From: a virus | Length of the DNA stretch: 64,000 nt | IMG/VR virus record: IMGVR_UViG_3300034283_001962 | Span: 32,001 to 96,000 of that record | Direction: 5' to 3' (one strand) | Part shown: one piece after another, positions 3,472 to 28,441 of the stretch | Layout: each line of letters begins with the position of its first letter | How positions within the stretch are numbered: the first letter of the stretch is position 1 | Notes under the pieces: generated by a model | Told to the model about the DNA's origin: nothing | The model's input: the letters and a program-made list of their open reading frames with translations, nothing else | Databases searched by the model: none | Program-made: the position numbers and the translations under genes

Positions 3472-4314
3472 AAATCATCATCCTCCTCTTCATTATCATT
3501 ATATAAATTAATCTTATCAATATTTTTTCCTTCTTCAATTATTTTCTCAAGTTCAGAATCATGAGTTGGAATAAAGTTTTCAATTTCCATATTAGCTTGA
3601 TATTTTTCTAATGCAAATACCAATTCTTTATTAGATAAACCCCATAGATCTTGTATTTTTCCATAATCAGAAAATGCTGTAGCTAAATGATTAGATATAG
3701 GTTGAGCAGGAAATTGCTTATTAAGTTCCTGTAATAAAGTAATAAATTGATTTAATTGATTTAATTTTTTAGACATAAATCTTATATTAGTTCAGAAAGA
3801 TTATTATTTTTATTTACTAATAAGTTATTAGTATTTAATTGTTTAGGATAAGTTTCAATTGGAGGTACACTAATTATTTTTACAGTATTTGTTTTATCAT
3901 CTAAAGTAATATTGATATATTTAGAATGTACTGATAAATCATTCAGCACTTTAAATATTTTATTAATCTCTACGTTATAAACAGTCATATATTATTCTTT
4001 TGCTTTAAAGATTCCCATTCAGCATCTTCCATAACTTTTAACCATTTCTTTTGGGGACATTCACAATCCAAACATCTAGTTTTTAAATGAATATTACATC
4101 CACAATCAGTACAATGATTATCAGGTCTATCTGTTAAATATCCTTTTGATATAGCATTAGTAGAAAAAGATGGACACTCTTTACATATTTCTGTTCTTTC
4201 TATTGCAATAGCTTCAACCCATTTTCTAACAAATATTGAGTTATAAGCTCCTTTAATAATACCTTTAACATCAATTTTTTTCCAGTTCATTAATTTTAGT
4301 TTTGGCATTTTCAA
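3462..4314 (-). CDS. Three small hypothetical proteins (3462-3776, 3782-3988, 3985-4314; the last is Cys-rich/Zn-binding)
   Basis: Tightly packed ORFs; CxxC motifs in 3985-4314. Confidence 0.6.
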
Positions 4315-4621
4315 TATACATTTGTAAGCTTTTAATAAAATTTAATATATTTTCAGAAGGGTTTTCAATTTTTTGAATCTCTAGTAACTTCTTTTCTTTT
4401 TTACGAATATCTATCTTTAGCTTTCGAACAGAAAATCTAAATACTCCAAACCCAGATAATTCTACAGTGGTACAAGAGTTAAATGCTTTAGTTGCATCTT
4501 TAAATATAAAGTTTATAACTTTATCTATTTCTATAGGTTTAATATCTAACTTAGAAGATAATCTATTAATTAATACTTCCTGAAGTTTATCTTTAGATAT
4601 AAGGTTATTTTCTAGATTCAT
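4271..4621 (-). CDS. HU/IHF-like DNA-binding protein
   Basis: VELSGFGVF motif and helical N-terminus typical of HU/IHF. Confidence 0.7.
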   Translation of the reverse strand: MNLENNLISKDKLQEVLINRLSSKLDIKPIEIDKVINFIFKDATKAFNSCTTVELSGFGVFRFSVRKLKIDIRKKEKKLLEIQKIENPSENILNFIKSLQMYIENAKTKINELEKN

Positions 4622-19777: not shown

Positions 19778-20662
19778 ATGGAATATATTATAAATCTTAT
19801 TCAAAACAGTCTTATTCCTTCAAGTTTAAATGTTGTTATATCTAAATTTCCAGATGGACAACAGAATGTATCTATTGATAACATTCCAATGAACTTATCA
19901 GCTAATGATAGTGTTATTATTCGCTCCAGATTAAATTCTTGGAAAGACTTGGAGCTAATTGTAGCTACTAATGCTGCAATTCGTAAATTTACTAAGAAAG
20001 TAACATTATATATTCCCTATCTATTAGGTGCACGTTCAGATAGACAATTTTCTAAATATGGTAATTCATATCTTGTTGATGTTTTAGCTCCACATATAAA
20101 TCTATGTGAATTTCAACAAGTAACTGTAGTGGATGTACATAGTGATGTAGCTGCAGCTTGCATTAAGAATCTTGATATTATTTCTAATAACTTCTTTGTT
20201 CAAGAAGCTATAGAAGATATATTTAGGAAGCCTATAAGTGACTTACAAGATGAAATTGTATTTGTTGCTCCTGATGCAGGTGCTGCAAAAAAGGTCTATA
20301 AGTTAGCTAAAGAAATAGGTTTTAAAGGTGATATAGTAGTGTGTTCTAAATATCGTGATGAGGAAGGAGAATTGTCTAATCTATCTATAAATTTAGATAT
20401 TCTTTCTAATTTACATAAAATGTTTATAATTATTGATGATATATGTGATGGAGGTCGTACCTTTATCAATATTTCTGAATATCTAAAAAAAGAATATGGT
20501 ATAGGATTATTTAATAAAGTATTGTTTGTAACACATGGTATATTCTCACAAGGATTTGATCAGTTGTTACAAGAATTTTCAACGATAGCCACTACTAATT
20601 CTTATCAAGACTTTCCTGAAATGGAAGAAAGCCCAAAATTTACACTAATTAATGTAATATAA
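19778..20662 (+). CDS. Ribose-phosphate pyrophosphokinase-like (Adps-like)
   Basis: KFPDG, PYLLGARSDR, DVHS, APDAGA and IIDDICDGGRTF motifs. Confidence 0.9.
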   Translation: MEYIINLIQNSLIPSSLNVVISKFPDGQQNVSIDNIPMNLSANDSVIIRSRLNSWKDLELIVATNAAIRKFTKKVTLYIPYLLGARSDRQFSKYGNSYLVDVLAPHINLCEFQQVTVVDVHSDVAAACIKNLDIISNNFFVQEAIEDIFRKPISDLQDEIVFVAPDAGAAKKVYKLAKEIGFKGDIVVCSKYRDEEGELSNLSINLDILSNLHKMFIIIDDICDGGRTFINISEYLKKEYGIGLFNKVLFVTHGIFSQGFDQLLQEFSTIATTNSYQDFPEMEESPKFTLINVI

Positions 20663-21210
20663 TGCTTGAAAAACAATCATTCATAAATAAAAATCCATTA
20701 ATGAATTATGATGAAATTGATGGTGATTTAATTGAACTAACAAAAGAAGGTAGATTTCAAATTATTGCACATGGATGTAATTGTTTCTGTCGTATGAAAA
20801 GAGGAATTGCTCCTCAAATGGCAGAAGCTTTTAAGTGTGATTATTTTGAATTAGAAGCTGATATGTATGAAGGAGATCCTAATAAATTGGGTCAAATTGA
20901 TTGGGAAACATTACATATTCGTGAAGATGGTTATGTAATTAGAACAAATAAAAGTTACCCTGATACATTAAAAATAGTTGTAATTAATGCCTATACACAA
21001 TATGAATATGATACTACAAAAAAACCATTTGATTACGAAGCATTTACATTATGTATGCGTAAGATAGCTCTTACATTTCCAGGTGGTCATATAGGATTAC
21101 CTAAAATAGGTTCTCATCTTGCTGGTGGTGATTGGAATCAAATCAAACAAATCATACAGAGAGAATTATGTCCTAAAATGCTAGTAACTGTAGTAAATTA
21201 TATATCATGA
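20662..21210 (+). CDS. Macrodomain (ADP-ribose processing) protein
   Basis: GDL, AHGCNC..M..GIA and LPKIGSHLAGGDW motifs. Confidence 0.85.
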   Translation: MLEKQSFINKNPLMNYDEIDGDLIELTKEGRFQIIAHGCNCFCRMKRGIAPQMAEAFKCDYFELEADMYEGDPNKLGQIDWETLHIREDGYVIRTNKSYPDTLKIVVINAYTQYEYDTTKKPFDYEAFTLCMRKIALTFPGGHIGLPKIGSHLAGGDWNQIKQIIQRELCPKMLVTVVNYIS

Positions 21211-21240
21211 ATTATTTAAATTTAAAATAATTTAAAACAA

Positions 21241-22897
21241 ATGAGAATCAATCCTCTTTTACAAACAGACTTTTATAAGGTAAATCATTATAACATGTAC
21301 CCAAAAAGTACAACTAAGATTTATTCTAATTTAACTCCTCGTAAATCGAGAGTTTCAGGAATAAATAAAATAGTTGTATTTGGTATCCAAGCTTTTATCT
21401 TAGATACATTAATAGAGCAATGGAGAGATAATTTCTTTCTAAGGCGTGAATCTATTACTGAGTATAAGCGTATGATGGATGCTACACTTGGTAAAGATGC
21501 TGTTAAAATTGATCATATAGAAGATCTTTGGGATTTAGGGTATCTTCCTTTGCATATCAAAGCTTTACCTGAAGGGTTAAAATAATGGCTCTTTTAAAAT
21601 CTATTTAATTGCTGGAACGTCTTAAAAATTAAGAAAATCAGCAGCTAAGATTTGTTTATTTAAATAATATATCTTATATTTGTATTATAAAATACTTTAT
21701 ATGGGATATAATATAGGAAAAAATCATCCGAAATTTATTGATTTAACAGGAAGAAAATTTGGAAAACTTACAGTTTTAGAATATACAGAAATCCAAGAAA
21801 AACATAGTAAAGTTTGGAAATGGAAATGTCAATGTGAATGTGGTAAAATTACATTCACAAGAACTAAAGAATTTCTAAAATTGAAGCCTGTACAGTCTTG
21901 TGCATCTTGTGGTAGAAAAAGAATGGGAATAAAAAGAACTCTTCCAGATAATTTAAGTTTAAAAAATAGAGTTTTTAGAGTTTACAAAAAAGGTGCTAGA
22001 AATAGAGGATATGATTTTAGTTTAACTTTTGAACAAGTTATGAATATTATAAATCAAAAATGTCATTATTGTAATAAATCTCCAGAAAATATTGAAGGAG
22101 AATTTACAAGAAATGGTATAGACAGAAAGGATAATAAACTTGGATACAGTATCGAAAATACAGTTCCTTGCTGCAAAACTTGTAACAAAATGAAAATGGA
22201 TATGGATTATAATGAATTTATAAAACATATTTCCGAAATTTATAAACAAATAAAGTTCAACGACTATCTCGAAAGAGAGTACACTATAAGCTAATGATAG
22301 TGGAAAAGGTAGACATCTTTTAAAAGATGAAGATATAGTCTAATCTACATAGTAATATGTAGCAGTTCATAAGAGAACGTGTATAAAAGTTGCGTTTTAT
22401 ACAGAATATAAATTGCATTATGTCCTATTGGTGTACCATGTTTAACAATTACCAATACTGTAGATCATGCATATTGGCTTGTAAACTATTTAGAAACTAT
22501 TATTTCAGCTTCAGTATGGCAACCGATAACAAGTGCTACTATAGCATTTGAGTACCGTAAATTGCTTAATAAGTACGCTCTGGAGACTACTGGTACAACA
22601 GATGGTGTACAATGGCAGGGTCATGATTTCTCAATGAGAGGTATGTCTTCTTTACAATCAGCATGTTCTAGTGGTGCAGGTCATTTACTTTCATTTACTG
22701 GAAGTGACACTGTACCTGCTATTTCATTTCTGGAAGAATTCTATAATGCTGATGTTGAGAAAGAATTGATAGGTGCTTCTATACCGGCAACAGAACACAG
22801 TGTAGCTTGTATGAGTAGTAATATAAATCAATATTCACAAGTTGAAGAAGAATTTGATGAATCAATAAATCAATGGAAAATTATCCGTTATTTTTAG
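21241..22897 (+). CDS. NAMPT/Namat-like N-terminal half; exons 21241-21577 and 22416-22897
   Basis: TDFYK motif; splicing restores LPEG-S-LCPIGVPCLTITNT; contains HDFSMRG and SIPATEHS. Confidence 0.88.
21578..22415 (+). mobile_element. Group I intron in NAMPT
   Basis: Exon ends in U, intron ends in G; IGS ATAATG-GCTCTT pairs with both exons; AATTGCTGGAA, AATCAGCAG, TTCAACGACTA and GATATAGTC core elements. Confidence 0.92.
21701..22294 (+). CDS. Intron-encoded HNH homing endonuclease
   Basis: DLTGRKFGKLTV, CHYC and GIDRKDN..GY...N.VPCC..CN motifs; own promoter TTTG(21651)-N20-TATATTTG. Confidence 0.88.
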   Translation: MGYNIGKNHPKFIDLTGRKFGKLTVLEYTEIQEKHSKVWKWKCQCECGKITFTRTKEFLKLKPVQSCASCGRKRMGIKRTLPDNLSLKNRVFRVYKKGARNRGYDFSLTFEQVMNIINQKCHYCNKSPENIEGEFTRNGIDRKDNKLGYSIENTVPCCKTCNKMKMDMDYNEFIKHISEIYKQIKFNDYLEREYTIS

Positions 22898-23510
22898 TTC
22901 TTGATAAATTATCTTTTGCCCAAAGAGGTCGTTGATTTGTATAATGAAAACATTTCTTTTGTTCTTCTGGATTAGTTAAATCAAAAGTAAAACACGGTTT
23001 AATATGGTCTATATGCCATTTACCATAGTTTTCCCAAGACATATCTTTATCCATGAGCTTAGAAATATAATCCTTAAAAAAATTAGGAGTACATCCAATA
23101 AGATTAAAGGTTTTATCAGCTTTTCTGTTTCCTTTTAAAGCATGATGAACTCTTCTTCTAAGATTTCTTTTAATTTTAAAAGTAGGATCATTTTTATGTA
23201 AACGTTCCCAATTTTTCTTATACTCTTTAATTTTCAAATTGTTAATATTACGATAATCTTTATCATAATTAGACTTTTCAGATTTATGAGATTTATAATA
23301 AGTTCTTTTAGCTAATCTGTGTTTTTCAATATTTTTTTGATAATGAGATTTGCGAGTTTTATTGAACAAATCAGTGTTATTCTCTCTGTAATTTTTATTA
23401 ATTAAATTAATACAAACTTTACAGATAGAATTATAACCTGATTTAAATCTTTTATTTTTAGGAAAATTATCTAATTCTTTTTCAATATGACATTTTGTAC
23501 ATAATTTCAT
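22881..23510 (-). CDS. Free-standing HNH homing endonuclease inserted antisense within NAMPT
   Basis: CxxC Zn motifs; WHIDHIKP...CFHYTNQRPLW.KDN; promoter at 23515-23546 on the minus strand. Confidence 0.85.
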   Translation of the reverse strand: MKLCTKCHIEKELDNFPKNKRFKSGYNSICKVCINLINKNYRENNTDLFNKTRKSHYQKNIEKHRLAKRTYYKSHKSEKSNYDKDYRNINNLKIKEYKKNWERLHKNDPTFKIKRNLRRRVHHALKGNRKADKTFNLIGCTPNFFKDYISKLMDKDMSWENYGKWHIDHIKPCFTFDLTNPEEQKKCFHYTNQRPLWAKDNLSRTKNNG

Positions 23511-23554
23511 TGTACAAAAATACACAATGTACACATAACTACCAAATTATTTTT

Positions 23555-24547
23555 ATGGTAAATTCAAAAAAAGTAAGAACTAGATCTATAACAAAAACAG
23601 AACAGTTATTTAAAGGTCAAAAAGATATGTTATTAAGACATTTTCAATTATATCCATCAGGTATTCTTGCTGAAGTTATGGATACTTGGAATCTTTGGCA
23701 AGTTCTTACAGAACTTCTTCCTGATCCTGAAATTAAAGCAGCAATTCTAGCTAGAGATGGTAAGTTAGTTATACGTCCTGATTCTGGTGATCCTGTTGAT
23801 ATTATTTGTGGTAAACCTATTCCAGAATTTAATACATTAGAAGAAGCAGAAAAACATTTTTATAAAAATGTTTTTGTAAATGGGAATATTCTTTTCAGGT
23901 TAAATGGAGAATTAAGACAAGTTATTACTCATTCTGGAAATACATTTATGAGTCAACTTCTTAAGCAATTTCCTCAAGATAAAGGTGTTATTGAATTGCT
24001 TTGGGATGTATTTGGTGGTACAGTAAACGAACAAGGTTATAAAGTACTTGATCCACACATAGGAGCTATTTACGGAGATTCAATTACATTAGGTAGAGCT
24101 ACTGAAATCTGTGAACGTTTAAAAGCTAAAGGGTTTGCAAGTACTAATATTGTATTAGGTATAGGTTCATTTACCTACCAGTACAATACTCGTGATACTT
24201 TTGGGTTTGCTGTTAAAGCTACTTATGGTGAAGTACTTCAAGAAACAGGTGTGATATTAACAACATATCCTTCTAAAAAAGAGATGAAACCTGTAGGTCG
24301 TGAAATCTTTAAAAATCCTATTACTGATGATGGTACTAAGAAATCAGCCAAAGGGTTACTTCGTGTAGATCATGTTGTAAAAGTTGATTCTTTAGGTGAT
24401 GTAGTAAGTCATGAGTATAAACTTGTTGACCAAGTATCTAAAGAAGAGGAAAAGCAAGGAGCATTAGAAACAGTATTTCTTAATGGAAAACTTGTTAAAT
24501 TGCAAAGTTTATCAGAAATTCGCAAAAGATTATCTAAAAACTTATAA
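23555..24547 (+). CDS. NAMPT/Namat-like C-terminal half (likely start MVNSKK)
   Basis: YPSGI...DTW, VIRPDSGDP, IYGDSIT, RDTFGFAVKAT and KKSAKG motifs. Confidence 0.88.
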   Translation: MVNSKKVRTRSITKTEQLFKGQKDMLLRHFQLYPSGILAEVMDTWNLWQVLTELLPDPEIKAAILARDGKLVIRPDSGDPVDIICGKPIPEFNTLEEAEKHFYKNVFVNGNILFRLNGELRQVITHSGNTFMSQLLKQFPQDKGVIELLWDVFGGTVNEQGYKVLDPHIGAIYGDSITLGRATEICERLKAKGFASTNIVLGIGSFTYQYNTRDTFGFAVKATYGEVLQETGVILTTYPSKKEMKPVGREIFKNPITDDGTKKSAKGLLRVDHVVKVDSLGDVVSHEYKLVDQVSKEEEKQGALETVFLNGKLVKLQSLSEIRKRLSKNL

Positions 24548-24549
24548 TT

Positions 24550-25194
24550 ATGGTTCCAGGAACAGTAACAATGTCATTGGCTGATATAGATAAACTTAGA
24601 AATGATGTCAAAGAAGCTCAAAATCAATTAAAAACAGTTGAAAAAGAAAAAGAAGAAATTAAAGCTGAGAAAAGAGTTTTAAAGATAACTATAACTAAGC
24701 ATTATAGTCAAAGTAATAAATATCTTATTGAAGAATTTATTAGATATGCTAGTGCAGAACATAGATTTGATAGTTTACAGTATGTTAAAGATTCTTTTTT
24801 TGCTCGTCACTTTAGATATTATAATAACTTTGGTTATGATTCAGCTAAAAATGCAGAAGATAAAACAGAAGAGTATATCAACTTTGATGATGCAATCTCT
24901 GATCTTCGTAAAGATGTGGAATACAAAGTGTTTACAGAGCTAGAAACTTTAAGAAAAGCTGAACAAACTTATTCACTAAAGTATGAAACATTAAAAGAGC
25001 AGTACAATAGTGATATAGTAGCCTTCATTAAAGAACATAATGATAGGTATTGTAAATTAATGAAGGAATATACTGATCTAAAAGAAGACAAGGATACTCG
25101 TAAAACTGAGGAAATTCTTAAAGAAAAGATCGCTAAACTCGAAAAAGATTTGTCTGAAGAAAAAGCAAAGAAATGGTATCATAAACTATTCTAA
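24550..25194 (+). CDS. Coiled-coil hypothetical protein
   Basis: 214 aa, heptad-rich. Confidence 0.65.
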   Translation: MVPGTVTMSLADIDKLRNDVKEAQNQLKTVEKEKEEIKAEKRVLKITITKHYSQSNKYLIEEFIRYASAEHRFDSLQYVKDSFFARHFRYYNNFGYDSAKNAEDKTEEYINFDDAISDLRKDVEYKVFTELETLRKAEQTYSLKYETLKEQYNSDIVAFIKEHNDRYCKLMKEYTDLKEDKDTRKTEEILKEKIAKLEKDLSEEKAKKWYHKLF

Positions 25195-25227
25195 AAATCT
25201 TTAAAAATCAAGTAAAAGAAACTAACA

Positions 25228-26916
25228 ATGTTTAAAACTAAGCAAAGTAACTTAATCGAAAAGAAAGAAAGTACTACCATTAAAGGTAAAAAGAATGCAT
25301 TTGTTGCAGCAGCTAATGAAAAAGCTGCAGTTACTATTAGTGGTAATGGTGCAATGAAGTACAGTACTACTGGTAATGATTTTGTTGATCAGTTTGGTAA
25401 ATGCTCTAATTACAAAGCTCCTCGTAGTTACAATGAAGTAAGTAAAGATATGAGTACGTTATGGGCGATTGATCCACAACAAGCATTTGCTTTTGCATTG
25501 TATATTAGAATGATTACCAGAACAGTATCTTTAATCAATGGTGTAAAAACAACCAGTGTACAAAGAGGACAAGGTTTAAAGCACGAAGGAATCATGAGAA
25601 TGATCTGGATTGCTGTAAATTATCCTAATGTATTCTGGAAAAATGCTCACTTGATTGTAGCAGTTGGTTCATGGAAAGATATCATTCAAATGCTCTCTTA
25701 TGATCTTCAGTATAATGGTTGGAAAGACCGTTTAATGAACTGGAATTATTTTGGAGATATGATTTTAGCTGGTCTGGAAAATCCAGCTCAGTCTAATTTA
25801 TTAAAGAAATACCTTCCTCAGATCAAAGCCAATTCTCGTTGTAAGACTATTGAGGCTCAAGCTGATAACCTAATTAGCAAGTGGATATGTTCACTACTTT
25901 TTGGTAGCAAAGAGAGTACATATAACTATAAGAAATACCGTCAATTAAAAACTAGCGGTACTGCACATGAATGGCAGAAGTTAATTTCAACAAAGAACTT
26001 AGTAAATATTAACTTTAGCACTATTCATGGTCGTGCATTAGCTATGATGGTATCTTCTAAGTTCTTGAAAAACAATGGTTTAGAAGCACGTTATGATCAA
26101 TGGCTGACTACACAACCTCTGGTGAAATATACAGGATTTGTGTATGAATTATGTGCAAAGATCAGTGCTATCAAAAAACCATATGAAGAACAAACAATCA
26201 ATAAGCAGTTCATGTCTTTGGTTGAAACAGCTAAAAAAGGAGCTAAGAAAGAAACTTCATTGATTGTAGTACGTGATACAAGTGGCTCTATGAGTTCAAA
26301 TGCAACAGGTACAAAAATATCATGTGGAGATGTAGCTAAATCTTTAGCTCTGTTCTTTAGTTACATGTTACCAGAAGGAGCATTTAACGATTCTTGGATC
26401 GAATTCCATAGCACAGCTCAAATGCGTACTTGGAAAGGTAAAACTCCAGTTGAACGTTGGAAGAATGATCATTCTTCGTATGTAGGAGATACAAATTTTG
26501 AAGGAGTAATTGACCTAATTTGTAATATTAAAAGAAAAGGAATTAGTGAAGAAGAGTTTCCAACAGGAATTCTTTGTGTATCCGATGGTGAATTTAATCC
26601 TGCTCAATTAGGTAAAACTAACGTTGAATCAGCTCGTATAAAGCTTAAAAAAGCTGGTTTCTCTGCTGAATATGTAAAGAATTTCCAGATAATTCTATGG
26701 AATTTAGGTAATTCTTACTACGGTAGAGGTAACTCTGGTAATAAGTTTGAAACTCATGGAGAAACTGAGAACGTGTTTTATTTCTCAGGTCTTGATGGAT
26801 CAGTTATAGCATTTCTTACAGGTTTAGAAGGTCAGAAAGCTGGTGTTCCTAAAACTGATGTAGAATTAATGCAAGCTGCATTAAATCAAGAGATCTTTGG
26901 AATGATCCAGATCTAA
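25228..26916 (+). CDS. TROVE-like + vWA protein (DUF2828 type, Ro60-like)
   Basis: Helical N-region with GSWKD; MIDAS DTSGSM, TNF and SDGEF; IILWNL. Confidence 0.8.
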   Translation: MFKTKQSNLIEKKESTTIKGKKNAFVAAANEKAAVTISGNGAMKYSTTGNDFVDQFGKCSNYKAPRSYNEVSKDMSTLWAIDPQQAFAFALYIRMITRTVSLINGVKTTSVQRGQGLKHEGIMRMIWIAVNYPNVFWKNAHLIVAVGSWKDIIQMLSYDLQYNGWKDRLMNWNYFGDMILAGLENPAQSNLLKKYLPQIKANSRCKTIEAQADNLISKWICSLLFGSKESTYNYKKYRQLKTSGTAHEWQKLISTKNLVNINFSTIHGRALAMMVSSKFLKNNGLEARYDQWLTTQPLVKYTGFVYELCAKISAIKKPYEEQTINKQFMSLVETAKKGAKKETSLIVVRDTSGSMSSNATGTKISCGDVAKSLALFFSYMLPEGAFNDSWIEFHSTAQMRTWKGKTPVERWKNDHSSYVGDTNFEGVIDLICNIKRKGISEEEFPTGILCVSDGEFNPAQLGKTNVESARIKLKKAGFSAEYVKNFQIILWNLGNSYYGRGNSGNKFETHGETENVFYFSGLDGSVIAFLTGLEGQKAGVPKTDVELMQAALNQEIFGMIQI

Positions 26917-27777: not shown

Positions 27778-28441
27778 TAAAGTCGGACCCGCTATATAGG
27801 AATATATAGGCAATAATTGGGAGAATTGCTGGAACGCTAAGGATTTATATCTATGCTAATCAGCAGCCGAGCTTCAAGGAAGTTTGAAGAAGGTTCAGAG
27901 ACTAGGGATACTACGGTAAGCCCATAGCACCCAACATCCAGAACGGATGATGATATAGTCCAACATCTATTGAAAAATAGAGAGTTAAAAGTTTGGAGAT
28001 GTAGTATATTTACCCTATCTTCGTATTAAATAATACGTATGAACTGGGATTATATTACAGGTTTTTTTGATGCAGATGGTTCTATTAGTTTAGTTCGACA
28101 GAACAAAAATAGAGAACGTGCACCTCAAATTTCATTTCATAATAATGAACTGAATATTCTAGAAAATATTCAAAGTTTTATTAAAAAAGAATTGAATATT
28201 ATAGGTCATATTTCTAAGAAAAAGAAAGCTAAAGAACATCATGGTCAACAATATGATTTAAAGTATCACGGTTTTCCAAAATGTATTGTAATTGGAAGTA
28301 AATTAAGAAGTATTCATCAAAAGAAAATTAAAAGAATACTTTTAAGTGAACTTATTCATAAGATAACTCCTAGAAACGGTAAATATAGTGAACAAACACT
28401 TAAAACCAGATCAGAGTTAGAACTCAAATTTTTAAATTAAG
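27778..28441 (+). mobile_element. Group I intron in the tmRNA T-loop
   Basis: P1 GTGGGTT/GACCCGC; AATTGCTGGAA, AATCAGCAG, TTCAGAGACTA and GATATAGTC; terminal G. Confidence 0.9.
28039..28440 (+). CDS. Intron-encoded single-motif LAGLIDADG endonuclease
   Basis: YITGFFDADGSI motif. Confidence 0.9.
   Translation: MNWDYITGFFDADGSISLVRQNKNRERAPQISFHNNELNILENIQSFIKKELNIIGHISKKKKAKEHHGQQYDLKYHGFPKCIVIGSKLRSIHQKKIKRILLSELIHKITPRNGKYSEQTLKTRSELELKFLN

Follow-up and report, generated by a model that had tools for sequence, protein, structure and literature searches.

The Nampt-family gene at positions 21241-24547 of the window (the whole 64,000-nt stretch of viral DNA that we analysed) consists of three pieces according to the ORF list and alignments, and at the second of its two interruptions it appears to be split, without splicing, into two polypeptides that are each translated. 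The split is real and the enzyme probably functional, and the explanation that we favour as a whole, and consider reasonably likely, is a two-chain Namat with a cassette-supplied tail and head. The plus strand of the cassette supplies an acidic tail of 21-27 residues with a stop codon, then a start codon with a basic head of 16-20 residues, and the opposite strand carries an HNH/EndoVII-type homing endonuclease gene. Under this explanation, splicing of an upstream group I intron would give a 272-residue N-half, the read-through transcript would also bear the C-half, translated from its own ATG, and the two chains would refold into the normal Nampt barrel without RNA or protein splicing. Whether the tail hairpin docks with the head strand, aided by opposite charge, is an evenly balanced call; such docking would stabilise assembly or activity, like the insert-derived tails of Aeh1 NrdA-a/NrdA-b. 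Because tail and head would travel with the cassette, the insertion would be nearly harmless to the phage, and the two-chain enzyme would persist beyond loss of the endonuclease gene.

Layout of the locus and its two interruptions

The elements of the second interruption lie where the first-pass annotation of this DNA had placed them: a tail on the N-half, an antisense endonuclease gene and a basic extension on the C-half (Table 1). Exon 1 comprises 112 codons and the first base of a Ser codon. The N-half frame runs through ...SIPATEHSVACM and 27 more residues to a TAG stop at 22895-22897. The C-half opens with an ATG at 23555 (MVNSKKVRTRSITKTE...) and ends at 24547; its native part begins at the helix ...MLLRHFQLYPSG and carries the RPDSG, YGDS and GIGS motifs. 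The intron-borne ORF also has a weak Pfam HNH match (E 0.028), and the 182-aa ORF upstream of the gene has no Pfam match at E<=0.01.

Table 1. Features of the split Nampt-family gene and of the two genes before it, in window coordinates.
Feature	Position	Strand	Basis or remark
Prs-like gene, candidate Adps	19778-20662	+	Pfam Pribosyltran, Pribosyltran_N, Pribosyl_synth
182-aa ORF, phosphatase-like, candidate NARP1-associated phosphatase	20662-21210	+	phrog_335 'phosphatase' E 2e-37
Exon 1, Nampt-family gene	21241-21577	+	Pfam NAMPT_N E 1e-12
Group I intron, first interruption	21578-22415	+	Rfam Intron_gpI
Intron-borne HNH-type endonuclease ORF	21680-22294	+	phrog_1035 E 1e-17, phrog_374 'HNH endonuclease' E 2e-16
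Exon 2, native N-half part	22416-22813	+	Pfam NAPRTase; ends ...ATEHSVACM (catalytic His motif)
Acidic C-terminal tail of N-half	22814-22897	+	27 codons + TAG; conserved 21-residue core 22832-22894
Free-standing HNH/EndoVII-type homing endonuclease gene	22881-23534	-	phrog_1035, tblastn relatives
Basic N-terminal head of C-half	23555-23614	+	20 codons, net +5, R-x-R-x-I-T motif
Native C-half part	23615-24547	+	Pfam NAPRTase E 1e-21, alignment, PDB matches

The first insertion, implied in the annotation by its mention of a second, is a real group I intron, as seen from its core match, its splice-site bases and its in-frame junction. An initial Rfam scan of 20500-25500 returned no matches, the true first intron included, and short stretches were therefore rescanned. 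Intron_gpI then matched 22285-22362 (35.8 bits, E 4e-8, model positions 147-253), which falls short of the gathering score of 50 since the match is truncated at its 5' side, where the ORF splits the core; the 5' half of the intron matched weakly on 21568-21700 (12.9 bits, E 0.28). Positions 22332-22382 are 92% identical to the part of a T4-type nrdB intron just 3' of I-TevIII. The base before the 5' splice site is U, the intron ends in G, and joining T21577 to CA22416-7 gives ...ALPEG-S-LCPIGVP..., an exact match to the sequence of relative L086, which is uninterrupted at this first junction.

The second break (~22814-23614) comprises an antisense HNH-type endonuclease gene, the 27-residue acidic tail and the 20-residue basic head. 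The mobile cassette spans ~800 nt, and its insertion point is precisely where the strand with the catalytic His (...EHSVACM) gives way to the helix that follows. No native residue was lost at the break in alignments with 53 uninterrupted relatives, and at most 2-5 residues around N/G-Q possibly occur on both of its sides. We had also considered whether the tail arose by duplication and divergence of the native helix that comes next, and dropped this after trimmed alignments and comparisons with locus L198 and protein P0027.

The endonuclease ORF has 217 codons and overlaps the 3' end of the N-half by 17 nt. Its best PHROG match was phrog_1035 'endonuclease VII' (E 4e-17), with HNH families weaker, and it had no Pfam match; its tblastn relatives are annotated as HNH endonuclease or endonuclease VII. 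It is single-copy in the 118-kb genome, and relatives in L086 (62% identity) and L198 (56%) occupy the same antisense position in other split Nampt-family genes. Contigs from four other lake runs (2020-2024) span both junctions with 0-1 differences. The DNA contigs of X4-X7 contained no joined allele, so an endonuclease-free allele of this phage was not seen among them. None of the 23 runs listed for the stretch was an RNA run. A promoter scan gave 24 sites against 23.2 expected, and 0 terminator-like sites.

Conservation, spread and modelled structure of the tail and head

Nine tails of equal length share the motif Y-S/T-Q-V/I-E-E-x-F/W-D/N-E-x4-W-x3-R/K-Y/C-F-stop. This conservation of aromatic and hydrophobic positions, length and stop position counts against a rather unlikely alternative, in which the two-chain enzyme is functional and assembles by the native Nampt interface alone, with tail and head as passengers, cassette DNA that is translated by chance ahead of the stop and behind the start. 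The constancy of charge sign argues the same way. The last 21 tail residues and the 20-residue head carry net charges of -3 and +5 in the window, tails range from -2 to -4 (9/9) and heads from +1 to +5 (25/25), and the unrelated type-2, type-3 and CB7 tail/head pairs have the same charge sign as the window pair. Substitution patterns point in both directions. Over the 21 tail codons, pS exceeded pN in 5 of 6 pairs (e.g. 0.64/0.19 and 0.81/0.25), as passenger DNA would not lead one to expect, but in the closest DNA pair, window and L086, pS was 0.33-0.37 and pN 0.30-0.36 over ~11-13 synonymous sites, as under neutral drift, and evolution is faster in the tail than in the enzyme body (pN 0.26 and 0.09, respectively, for L198 versus L199).

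The annotation had proposed a search for the same tails elsewhere, and our searches yielded the nine tails and ~20 head clusters in split Nampt-family genes. The head motif M-K-T-R-I-R-x-I/L-T-x-x-E-K occurs on C-halves of many lineages; among the 150 best-scoring cluster representatives, 19 have its M-K-T-R-I-R start, ~20 protein clusters, and the window head matches the consensus at only 5 of 15 positions. The tail is confined to split genes in our sample: it was found in 0 of 65 uninterrupted Nampt proteins of 460-2000 aa. The EHS-to-YPxG spacing was 25 or 28 in the 56 of these long proteins where the pattern caught both motifs, no insert was seen in the corresponding stretches of the remaining 9, and trimmed alignments agreed with this. 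Across 80 IMG/VR loci, the two sides of the break were contiguous wherever both were visible, except in L047 and L062, which are also split. L197 and L199 have no endonuclease but keep the N-half intact, tail included, as well as a C-half bearing the head; tblastn with two endonucleases gave matches only in the window, L198 and L086. Retention of both peptides after loss of the endonuclease again speaks against passenger DNA.

Three unrelated endonuclease families occupy the same Nampt site, each with its own tails. An AU test against a single clade, with 14 R-x-R-head C-halves set against 69 others, gave a delta lnL of 205 (p 2.3e-5); head-bearing C-halves are thus not one clade, which suggests that the module moves between enzyme lineages. 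We relied on the AU test alone for this because the quick tree had little resolution, with stars on 9 of its 80 inner branches. A metagenome scan with the head alignment found one locus, with an uninterrupted gene, and of 28 loci found with the L047 endonuclease, the only one in a Nampt gene was L047's own contig. In a rough stop-to-stop survey beside 46 of the 80 relatives of the window endonuclease, which omitted 34 as duplicates or partial matches, L086 alone had a convergent ORF with a similar tail. None of the 40 matches listed for the head-bearing C-half P0093 in a tblastn against GenBank phages, with 1853 further rows beyond them, began at residue 1, the lowest being 3.

We tentatively propose, as an idea somewhat more doubtful than not, that the acidic hairpin tail and basic R-x-R head form a portable two-piece docking module of the endonuclease cassette rather than of the enzyme, an 'antidote' to the cut that the cassette would bring wherever it homes into a Nampt/Namat gene, and which would have spread among ~40-55% identical enzyme lineages and been kept as a subunit joint after endonuclease decay. 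If true, this would be a natural, transferable, splicing-free protein-complementation tag.

The annotation had pictured the tails as a beta-sheet clasp. In support of part of this picture, AlphaFold2 predicted the tail of the exon-2 piece as a beta hairpin (E142-147/E152-158, block pLDDT 81 and 78) within a poor overall fold (mean pLDDT 61), and the tail of the L047 N-half as a hairpin too (E257-262/E268-275, mean pLDDT 86). That the predicted hairpins have the highest local confidence is a further point against passenger DNA. The annotation had also suggested multimer modelling of the halves, and a three-chain complex model scored 0.87 against 0.44 for the best of 3 controls, although it used custom alignments and three chains, unlike the calibration set, in which 116 of the 157 solved complexes attained the mark for this score, as did 2 of the 215 mismatched pairs. 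Runs agreed in at least 96% of contacts, with partner pLDDT of at least 82. The high score may reflect solved Nampt structures that the predictor had memorised. Tail residues 133-134, 137, 139-146, 153, 155-156 and 158 and head residues 6-12 and 16-18 all lie at the confidently modelled interface; the output does not give residue-to-residue contacts, so tail-head pairing, and with it the clasp, stays a prediction. With ~375 contacts, the modelled native interface is very large, as would suit assembly without help from the tails.

The enzyme body and its probable function

The Pfam NAPRTase profile is divided between the halves, exon 2 matching profile positions 2-72 and the C-half 64-201, and PDB Nampt chains align to exon-2 residues 2-134 as well as to the C-half. 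Exon 2 is 65-71% identical to the uninterrupted relatives L004-L008. As the annotation had stated, both halves keep their catalytic motifs: the invariant columns HDFSxRG, EHS, RPDSG, YGDS and GxG are all retained in alignments of 63 and 59 rows. It is thus very improbable that the insertion inactivated the gene and left both ORFs as decaying remnants. The bodies of split alleles are under strong purifying selection (pS 0.79 and pN 0.235 for exon 2 of window versus L086; pS 0.44 and pN 0.09 for the N-half body of L198 versus L199), an outcome opposite to the pseudogenisation that a dN/dS comparison had been proposed to reveal, and dozens of diverged split alleles have open frames, while the sequence was unchanged across the lake runs. 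Decay would be easier to accept in an accessory anti-defence gene, often dispensable to a phage, and one database protein, P0001, is the window C-half with its C-terminus altered after residue ~246, perhaps by a frameshift in that allele, perhaps through faulty assembly.

The annotation called the enzyme NAMPT, whereas gene context favours the Namat of the NAD+ reconstitution pathway NARP1, of which the Nampt-family enzyme is most likely the second enzyme. NARP1 pairs a Prs-like with a Nampt-like gene (Adps and Namat) in phages, and Namat prefers ADPR-pyrophosphate over PRPP, according to the accessible text of the original report (bioRxiv 10.1101/2024.02.11.579819); extended operons include a phosphatase (bioRxiv 10.64898/2026.01.28.702374, accessible text). 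As in NARP1, a Prs-like gene (19778-20662) lies near the Nampt-like gene, two genes upstream, and the genome lacks a detectable NMNAT: PF01467 was not found in the 118-kb genome and was positive in all 14 control genomes. Exon 2 shares 65% identity with the SPbetaL1 region, and the Namat of that phage is the one that was purified. Unlike the Namat genes in the published portions available, which are single ORFs, the candidate Namat gene here is split. The enzyme is probably an anti-defence enzyme, and the family would then show selfish elements tolerated inside a strongly selected gene.

Splicing signals and previously described split genes

A focused Rfam scan of 22790-23640 gave no Intron_gpI match at E<=10, under a lax setting that, as a control, recovered the 3' half of the first intron at E 4e-8. 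Reading frames cover all of the second insert but two stretches of 67 nt and 20 nt. In a split intein, the N- and C-pieces together make a HINT domain of at least ~130 residues, with Cys or Ser as its first residue and, at the C-junction, both His-Asn and a Cys/Ser/Thr nucleophile. Here the tail has 27 aa and the head 20 aa without His-Asn, the Cys of ...VACM is native, being present in uninterrupted relatives, and NAPRTase and NAMPT_N alone, with no intein family, were matched by Pfam on the gene pieces. The annotation had seen neither a group I core nor intein termini at the second insertion, and both searches were blank. Its splicing-free split is supported because intron-core and intein features are absent, tail and head are conserved and the split outlasts the endonuclease; this was the part of its overall interpretation that stood.

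The least probable reading is that one chain is restored because the insert is itself an intron of unrecognised type, with its ORF antisense, or an unusual protein-splicing element. In its favour, the sequence allows a plausible in-frame junction, with U after ...AGT and G before TTA at 23603-5, and even the first intron escaped the Rfam scan of the whole 5-kb region. Against it, the focused scan was blank, the non-coding RNA is too short, a HINT fold needs far more residues than tail and head provide, the tail shows conservation at the protein level and its stop is fixed, the heads of all relatives start with Met, three unrelated endonuclease families with differing tails share the one site, and the CB7 insert at that site is unspliced (PMC7344957, available portions).

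The favoured two-chain reading resembles Aeh1 nrdA-a/mobE/nrdA-b, a ribonucleotide reductase described as 'genes in pieces' (Friedrich 2007 via PMC2988022; Crona 2011, PMC3045599; accessible text of both). In each case the break in the enzyme gene is due to a free-standing homing endonuclease of HNH type and lies next to active-site residues and between alpha/beta barrel elements, neither RNA nor protein splicing is involved (here judged from sequence alone), and unique, oppositely charged C- and N-terminal tails at the break are missing in uninterrupted homologues. The window differs in its enzyme, in an endonuclease on the opposite strand that overlaps the N-half tail-to-tail, in the charges (an acidic N-half tail and basic C-half head, against a basic NrdA-a and acidic NrdA-b tail) and in a tail/head family, known from database and metagenome sequences, that is found on many enzyme lineages and outlives the endonuclease. 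In the accessible sections of PMC3045599, the Aeh1 tails are required for activity and for dimerising heterodimers, which weighs against the tail as a passenger, but not for joining the halves, which weighs for it. The same sections propose that the tails arrived with the endonuclease, describe this one case of endonuclease-borne tails rescuing a fragmented enzyme, and predict that such tails are general yet hard to find.

The principle of insert-derived, oppositely charged tails is thus already published, and the annotation's idea is not new. The locus leaves that principle unchanged and adds one more instance of a strategy that another phage enzyme had already been shown to use. It belongs to a sizeable natural family (nine tails, ~20 head clusters, three endonuclease families and endonuclease-free descendants), in which tails are conserved enough for recognition, modelling and co-variation tests, and the tail/head is a short natural peptide pair that is a candidate for split-protein assembly.

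Our literature search found no split Nampt besides that of Pectobacterium phage vB_PatM_CB7, with CB7_244, the HNH gene CB7_245 and CB7_246, a nicotinamide phosphoribosyl transferase (PMC7344957; KY514263); PMC5587285, PMC5618024 and PMC3728262 contained nothing pertinent. In the available portions of that paper, RT-PCR showed no splicing of this same-site HNH split and the authors suggested an Aeh1-like two-peptide enzyme; the non-splicing 'intron' is mentioned in passing there and the tails are undiscussed. CB7 shares the enzyme family and the identical split site, a few residues past ...ASEHSV, an acidic tail (net -3) with a weakly basic head (net +2), and a Prs-like gene upstream, but its HNH gene lies on the same strand as the enzyme gene, and neither its tail nor its head is related in sequence to the window's.

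Split-intein 'fractured genes' are also similar in involving a phage enzyme gene, an endonuclease gene between the halves, stop and start codons supplied by the element, one locus without the endonuclease, and charge-driven docking of added peptides. There, however, true split inteins ligate the halves and all three genes lie on one strand, whereas the window's added peptides are 47 residues without intein motifs, so that its halves must stay separate chains.

A Nampt-family gene interrupted twice

The window's phage is found in lake-water metagenomes, and its source record, a 118,407-bp virus, is rated 100% complete. Across that whole genome the plus-strand gene at 21241-24547 is the sole Nampt-family copy, and the ORF listing and the sequence resolve it into three pieces.

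Layout of the split Nampt-family gene and nearby features (window positions)
Feature	Position	Strand	Remarks
Prs-like gene	19778-20662		upstream of split gene
182-aa ORF	20662-21210		between Prs-like and split genes; phrog_335 'phosphatase', E 2e-37
Exon 1	21241-21577	+	Pfam NAMPT_N
Group I intron	21578-22415		
Intron-borne HNH-type ORF	21680-22294		within 21578-22415
Exon 2, stop included	22416-22897	+	Pfam NAPRTase, profile positions 2-72
217-codon endonuclease ORF	22881-23534	-	overlaps N-half by 17 nt
Third ORF (C-half)	23555-24547	+	Pfam NAPRTase, profile positions 64-201
LAGLIDADG endonuclease ORF	28039-28440		3.5 kb downstream; Pfam LAGLIDADG_3 and LAGLIDADG_1, E about 1e-7

The first interruption is a group I intron with an HNH-type ORF inside. 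Joining the exons after T21577 and G22415 yields ...ALPEG-S-LCPIGVP..., identical letter by letter to the uninterrupted IMG/VR relative L086. A focused Rfam scan placed Intron_gpI at 22285-22362 (35.8 bits, E 4e-8, model positions 147-253), the 5′ half of the model matching weakly (E 0.28). By megablast, phage matches were confined to this first insert: T4-type nrdB introns are 92% identical to 22332-22382 and crAss-like phages about 80% identical to 22252-22409. The counterpart of the matched stretch lies inside nrdB, just 3′ of I-TevIII, in RB3, and in an HNH insert splitting a DNA polymerase gene in cr53_1. The database protein P0007 begins exactly at the intron site, indicating that the site is occupied in another relative too. 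The LAGLIDADG ORF downstream is a further homing endonuclease of this genome.

At the second interruption, the first-pass annotation had described a NAMPT gene split by an antisense homing endonuclease, with extensions on both halves and catalytic motifs intact. The frame of the upstream product (N-half) continues past ...SIPATEHSVACM for 27 more residues, an acidic tail with a 21-residue core, before TAG (22895-22897). For the minus-strand ORF, phrog_1035 'endonuclease VII' gives a match at E 4e-17 and HNH families give weaker ones; Pfam gives none, and the ORF's phage relatives are annotated as HNH endonuclease or endonuclease VII. The C-half starts at ATG 23555, 20 nt beyond the endonuclease start codon, and opens with a 20-residue basic head, native sequence returning from G21 onward (...GQKDMLLRHFQLYPSG). 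When 53 uninterrupted relatives were aligned and the alignments cut at the break, no native residue proved missing and the invariant motif columns were retained, so that description is confirmed, and the locus is a real, well-supported split gene. Contigs of four other lake runs (2020, 2023, 2024) bridged both the N-half/endonuclease and the endonuclease/C-half junctions with 0-1 differences, and none contained a joint lacking the insert.

Two kinds of divergent sequence match this locus. Contigs from lake runs X4, X5 and X7 match the window up to 22861, inside the tail, with unrelated sequence beyond, and may come from a related phage in which the same tail start leads into something different. 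P0001, a 270-aa version of the C-half, differs after ...SKKEMKP and is either a frameshifted population allele or an assembly error.

Splicing, charge and predicted assembly

The sequence shows no sign of splicing at the second insertion. The lax Rfam setting that detects the first intron picked up no group I intron across 22790-23640 even at E<=10, where just 67 nt and 20 nt of the insert fall outside reading frames. A HINT domain is far longer than the 47 residues of tail and head together, and inteins end in His-Asn, which is absent from the window's head; the Cys of ...VACM is also native in uninterrupted relatives. This agrees with the first-pass annotation, which saw no group I core or intein termini here. 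The split gene most likely gives rise to a functional enzyme made of two chains.

The proposed charge complementarity was borne out, with net charges of -2 to -4 in all nine tails and +1 to +5 in all 25 heads; tail/head values are -13/+6 for the split relative L047, -2/+1 for the split relative L062 and -3/+2 for Pectobacterium phage CB7. AlphaFold2 modelled the exon-2 piece poorly overall (mean pLDDT 61), with the tail as a hairpin (E142-147, E152-158) forming its best-scoring blocks (81, 78), and gave the L047 N-half a good fold (mean pLDDT 86), likewise with a hairpin at its end. For a three-chain complex of exon 1, exon 2 plus tail, and the C-half as partner, the scores were 0.87, 0.87 and 0.86 against 0.44 for the best control, using self-built alignments and three chains, unlike the calibration, in which 116 of 157 solved complexes and 2 of 215 mismatched pairs attained the mark. 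Contact agreement between runs was at least 96% and partner pLDDT at least 82. The confident interface list, which gives residues at the interface rather than residue-residue pairs, includes tail residues 133-134, 137, 139-146, 153, 155-156 and 158 and head residues 6-12 and 16-18. Since Nampt structures are already solved, this pass may reflect the predictor's prior exposure to the fold. Of the beta-sheet clasp suggested earlier, the tail hairpin and the placement of both extensions at the interface are thus features of the models, and the clasp function itself stays a prediction.

A tail/head family on varied enzyme bodies

Scanning IMG/VR with the C-half gave 80 loci (best 56% identical). 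In two of these, L047 and L062, the gene is interrupted at the window's split site by an antisense endonuclease from another family (phrog_655 HNH+NUMOD3; phrog_314), and each has a tail and head of its own type. Among 80 loci found with the endonuclease, one, L086 (62% identical endonuclease, at a contig end), is antisense against a Nampt-family N-half, which lacks the first intron and bears a tail as long as the window's. Protein searches found the window-type tail on four further N-halves (P0005-P0008), the window-type head on three further C-halves (P0002-P0004) and the L047-type tail on two N-halves (P0013 and P0023); none of 65 longer Nampt proteins (460-2000 aa) contained the tail. A head-region profile gave 375 hits in a set of 1.84 billion cluster representatives, and 19 of the best 150 align from their own first residues, sharing M-K-T-R-I-R-x-I/L-T-x-x-E-K on widely differing enzyme bodies. 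The head pattern also occurs at four IMG/VR loci (L197-L200): L198 combines the same tail, an antisense endonuclease (56% identical) and a head-bearing C-half, and at L197 and L199 the tail and head are present and both frames are open, with no endonuclease.

These loci carry further peculiarities. A 122-aa plus-strand ORF (L198:3136-3504, L199:3136-3504; 91% identical between loci, no Pfam match, no counterpart in the window) sits downstream of the endonuclease position and overlaps the start of the C-half by 4 nt. In the L199 C-half (3501-4490), about 76 additional residues separate ...AIMDR from GKLVIRPDSG, and the C-terminus is altered close to the locus end. L200:662-2050, a head-bearing C-half of a cyanophage-like lineage, has an apparent intein in the conserved ...LVIRPD/SGDP motif (slash, insertion point), beginning with Cys and ending ...VCGN before SGDP; Nampt/Namat genes thus appear to have been invaded by intron, endonuclease cassette and intein at three different conserved sites. 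Five proteins (P0106, P0152, P0198, P0202, P0225) start at the Met of ...EHSV-M-CAGG and may stem from genes split slightly further upstream, by a few residues, or from gene prediction on broken contigs.

Between the window and L086, pS/pN was 0.75/0.35 for exon 1, 0.79/0.235 for exon 2 and 0.55/0.27 for the endonuclease. In the 21-codon tail core, the window, L086, L198 and L199 give six pairwise comparisons, and in five of them pS was well above pN (0.64/0.19, 0.81/0.25, 0.67/0.28, 0.92/0.36, 0.66/0.26), the exception being window-L086 (0.33/0.30); with about 11 synonymous sites and non-independent pairs, these values are supportive, not proof. Most conserved tail positions carry aromatic or hydrophobic residues (Y, V/I, F/W, W, V/I, Y, F), joined by an E-E pair, a pattern as expected if the tail were a folded peptide.

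We compared 14 C-halves bearing an R-x-R head with 69 others over 236 columns downstream of the break, excluding head and helix. A single head-bearing clade was rejected (AU test, delta lnL 205, p 2.3e-5), the group having been fixed by head motif before the tree and a quick tree viewed before the test. In that tree (LG+G4, weak resolution, long branches), starred clades unite split and uninterrupted forms, e.g. P0090-93 and L198 with Lbo-JY46 and L071. The window and L198 share 13 of 21 tail-core residues, with N-half bodies 42-43% identical. Together these comparisons argue that the tail/head module moves relative to the enzyme body, presumably via homing or gene conversion.

Precedents and enzyme context

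The docking tails follow a published principle. Crona et al. report that mobE insertion created oppositely charged tails essential for the split NrdA of Aeromonas phage Aeh1, and put forward insertion-made tails as a general mechanism (PMC3045599). Dassa et al. describe same-strand endonucleases between split inteins and model invasion of intein-less genes (PMC2677866), and Buttimer et al. report that the nicotinamide phosphoribosyl transferase gene of CB7 carries an unspliced HNH insert, suggesting an Aeh1-like enzyme (PMC7344957). On the CB7 sequence the split site is the same as the window's, but the HNH gene lies on the enzyme gene's strand rather than antisense, and the tails are unrelated. 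No description of the tail/head family or antisense arrangement was found in the openly accessible literature; the antisense layout, the recognisable, mobile tail/head family and the descendants without endonuclease are new.

The gene context fits NARP1, a phage NAD+ reconstitution pathway in which Adps and Namat regenerate NAD+ out of ADP-ribose and nicotinamide (bioRxiv 10.1101/2024.02.11.579819), because the neighbours are Prs-like and phosphatase-like, NMNAT (PF01467) was not found in the window's genome and exon 2 shares 65% identity with the SPbetaL1 region. A NARP1 version extended by a phosphatase has been described (bioRxiv 10.64898/2026.01.28.702374), and the window's operon may be of this kind, with the 182-aa ORF, which has no Pfam family, as candidate phosphatase.
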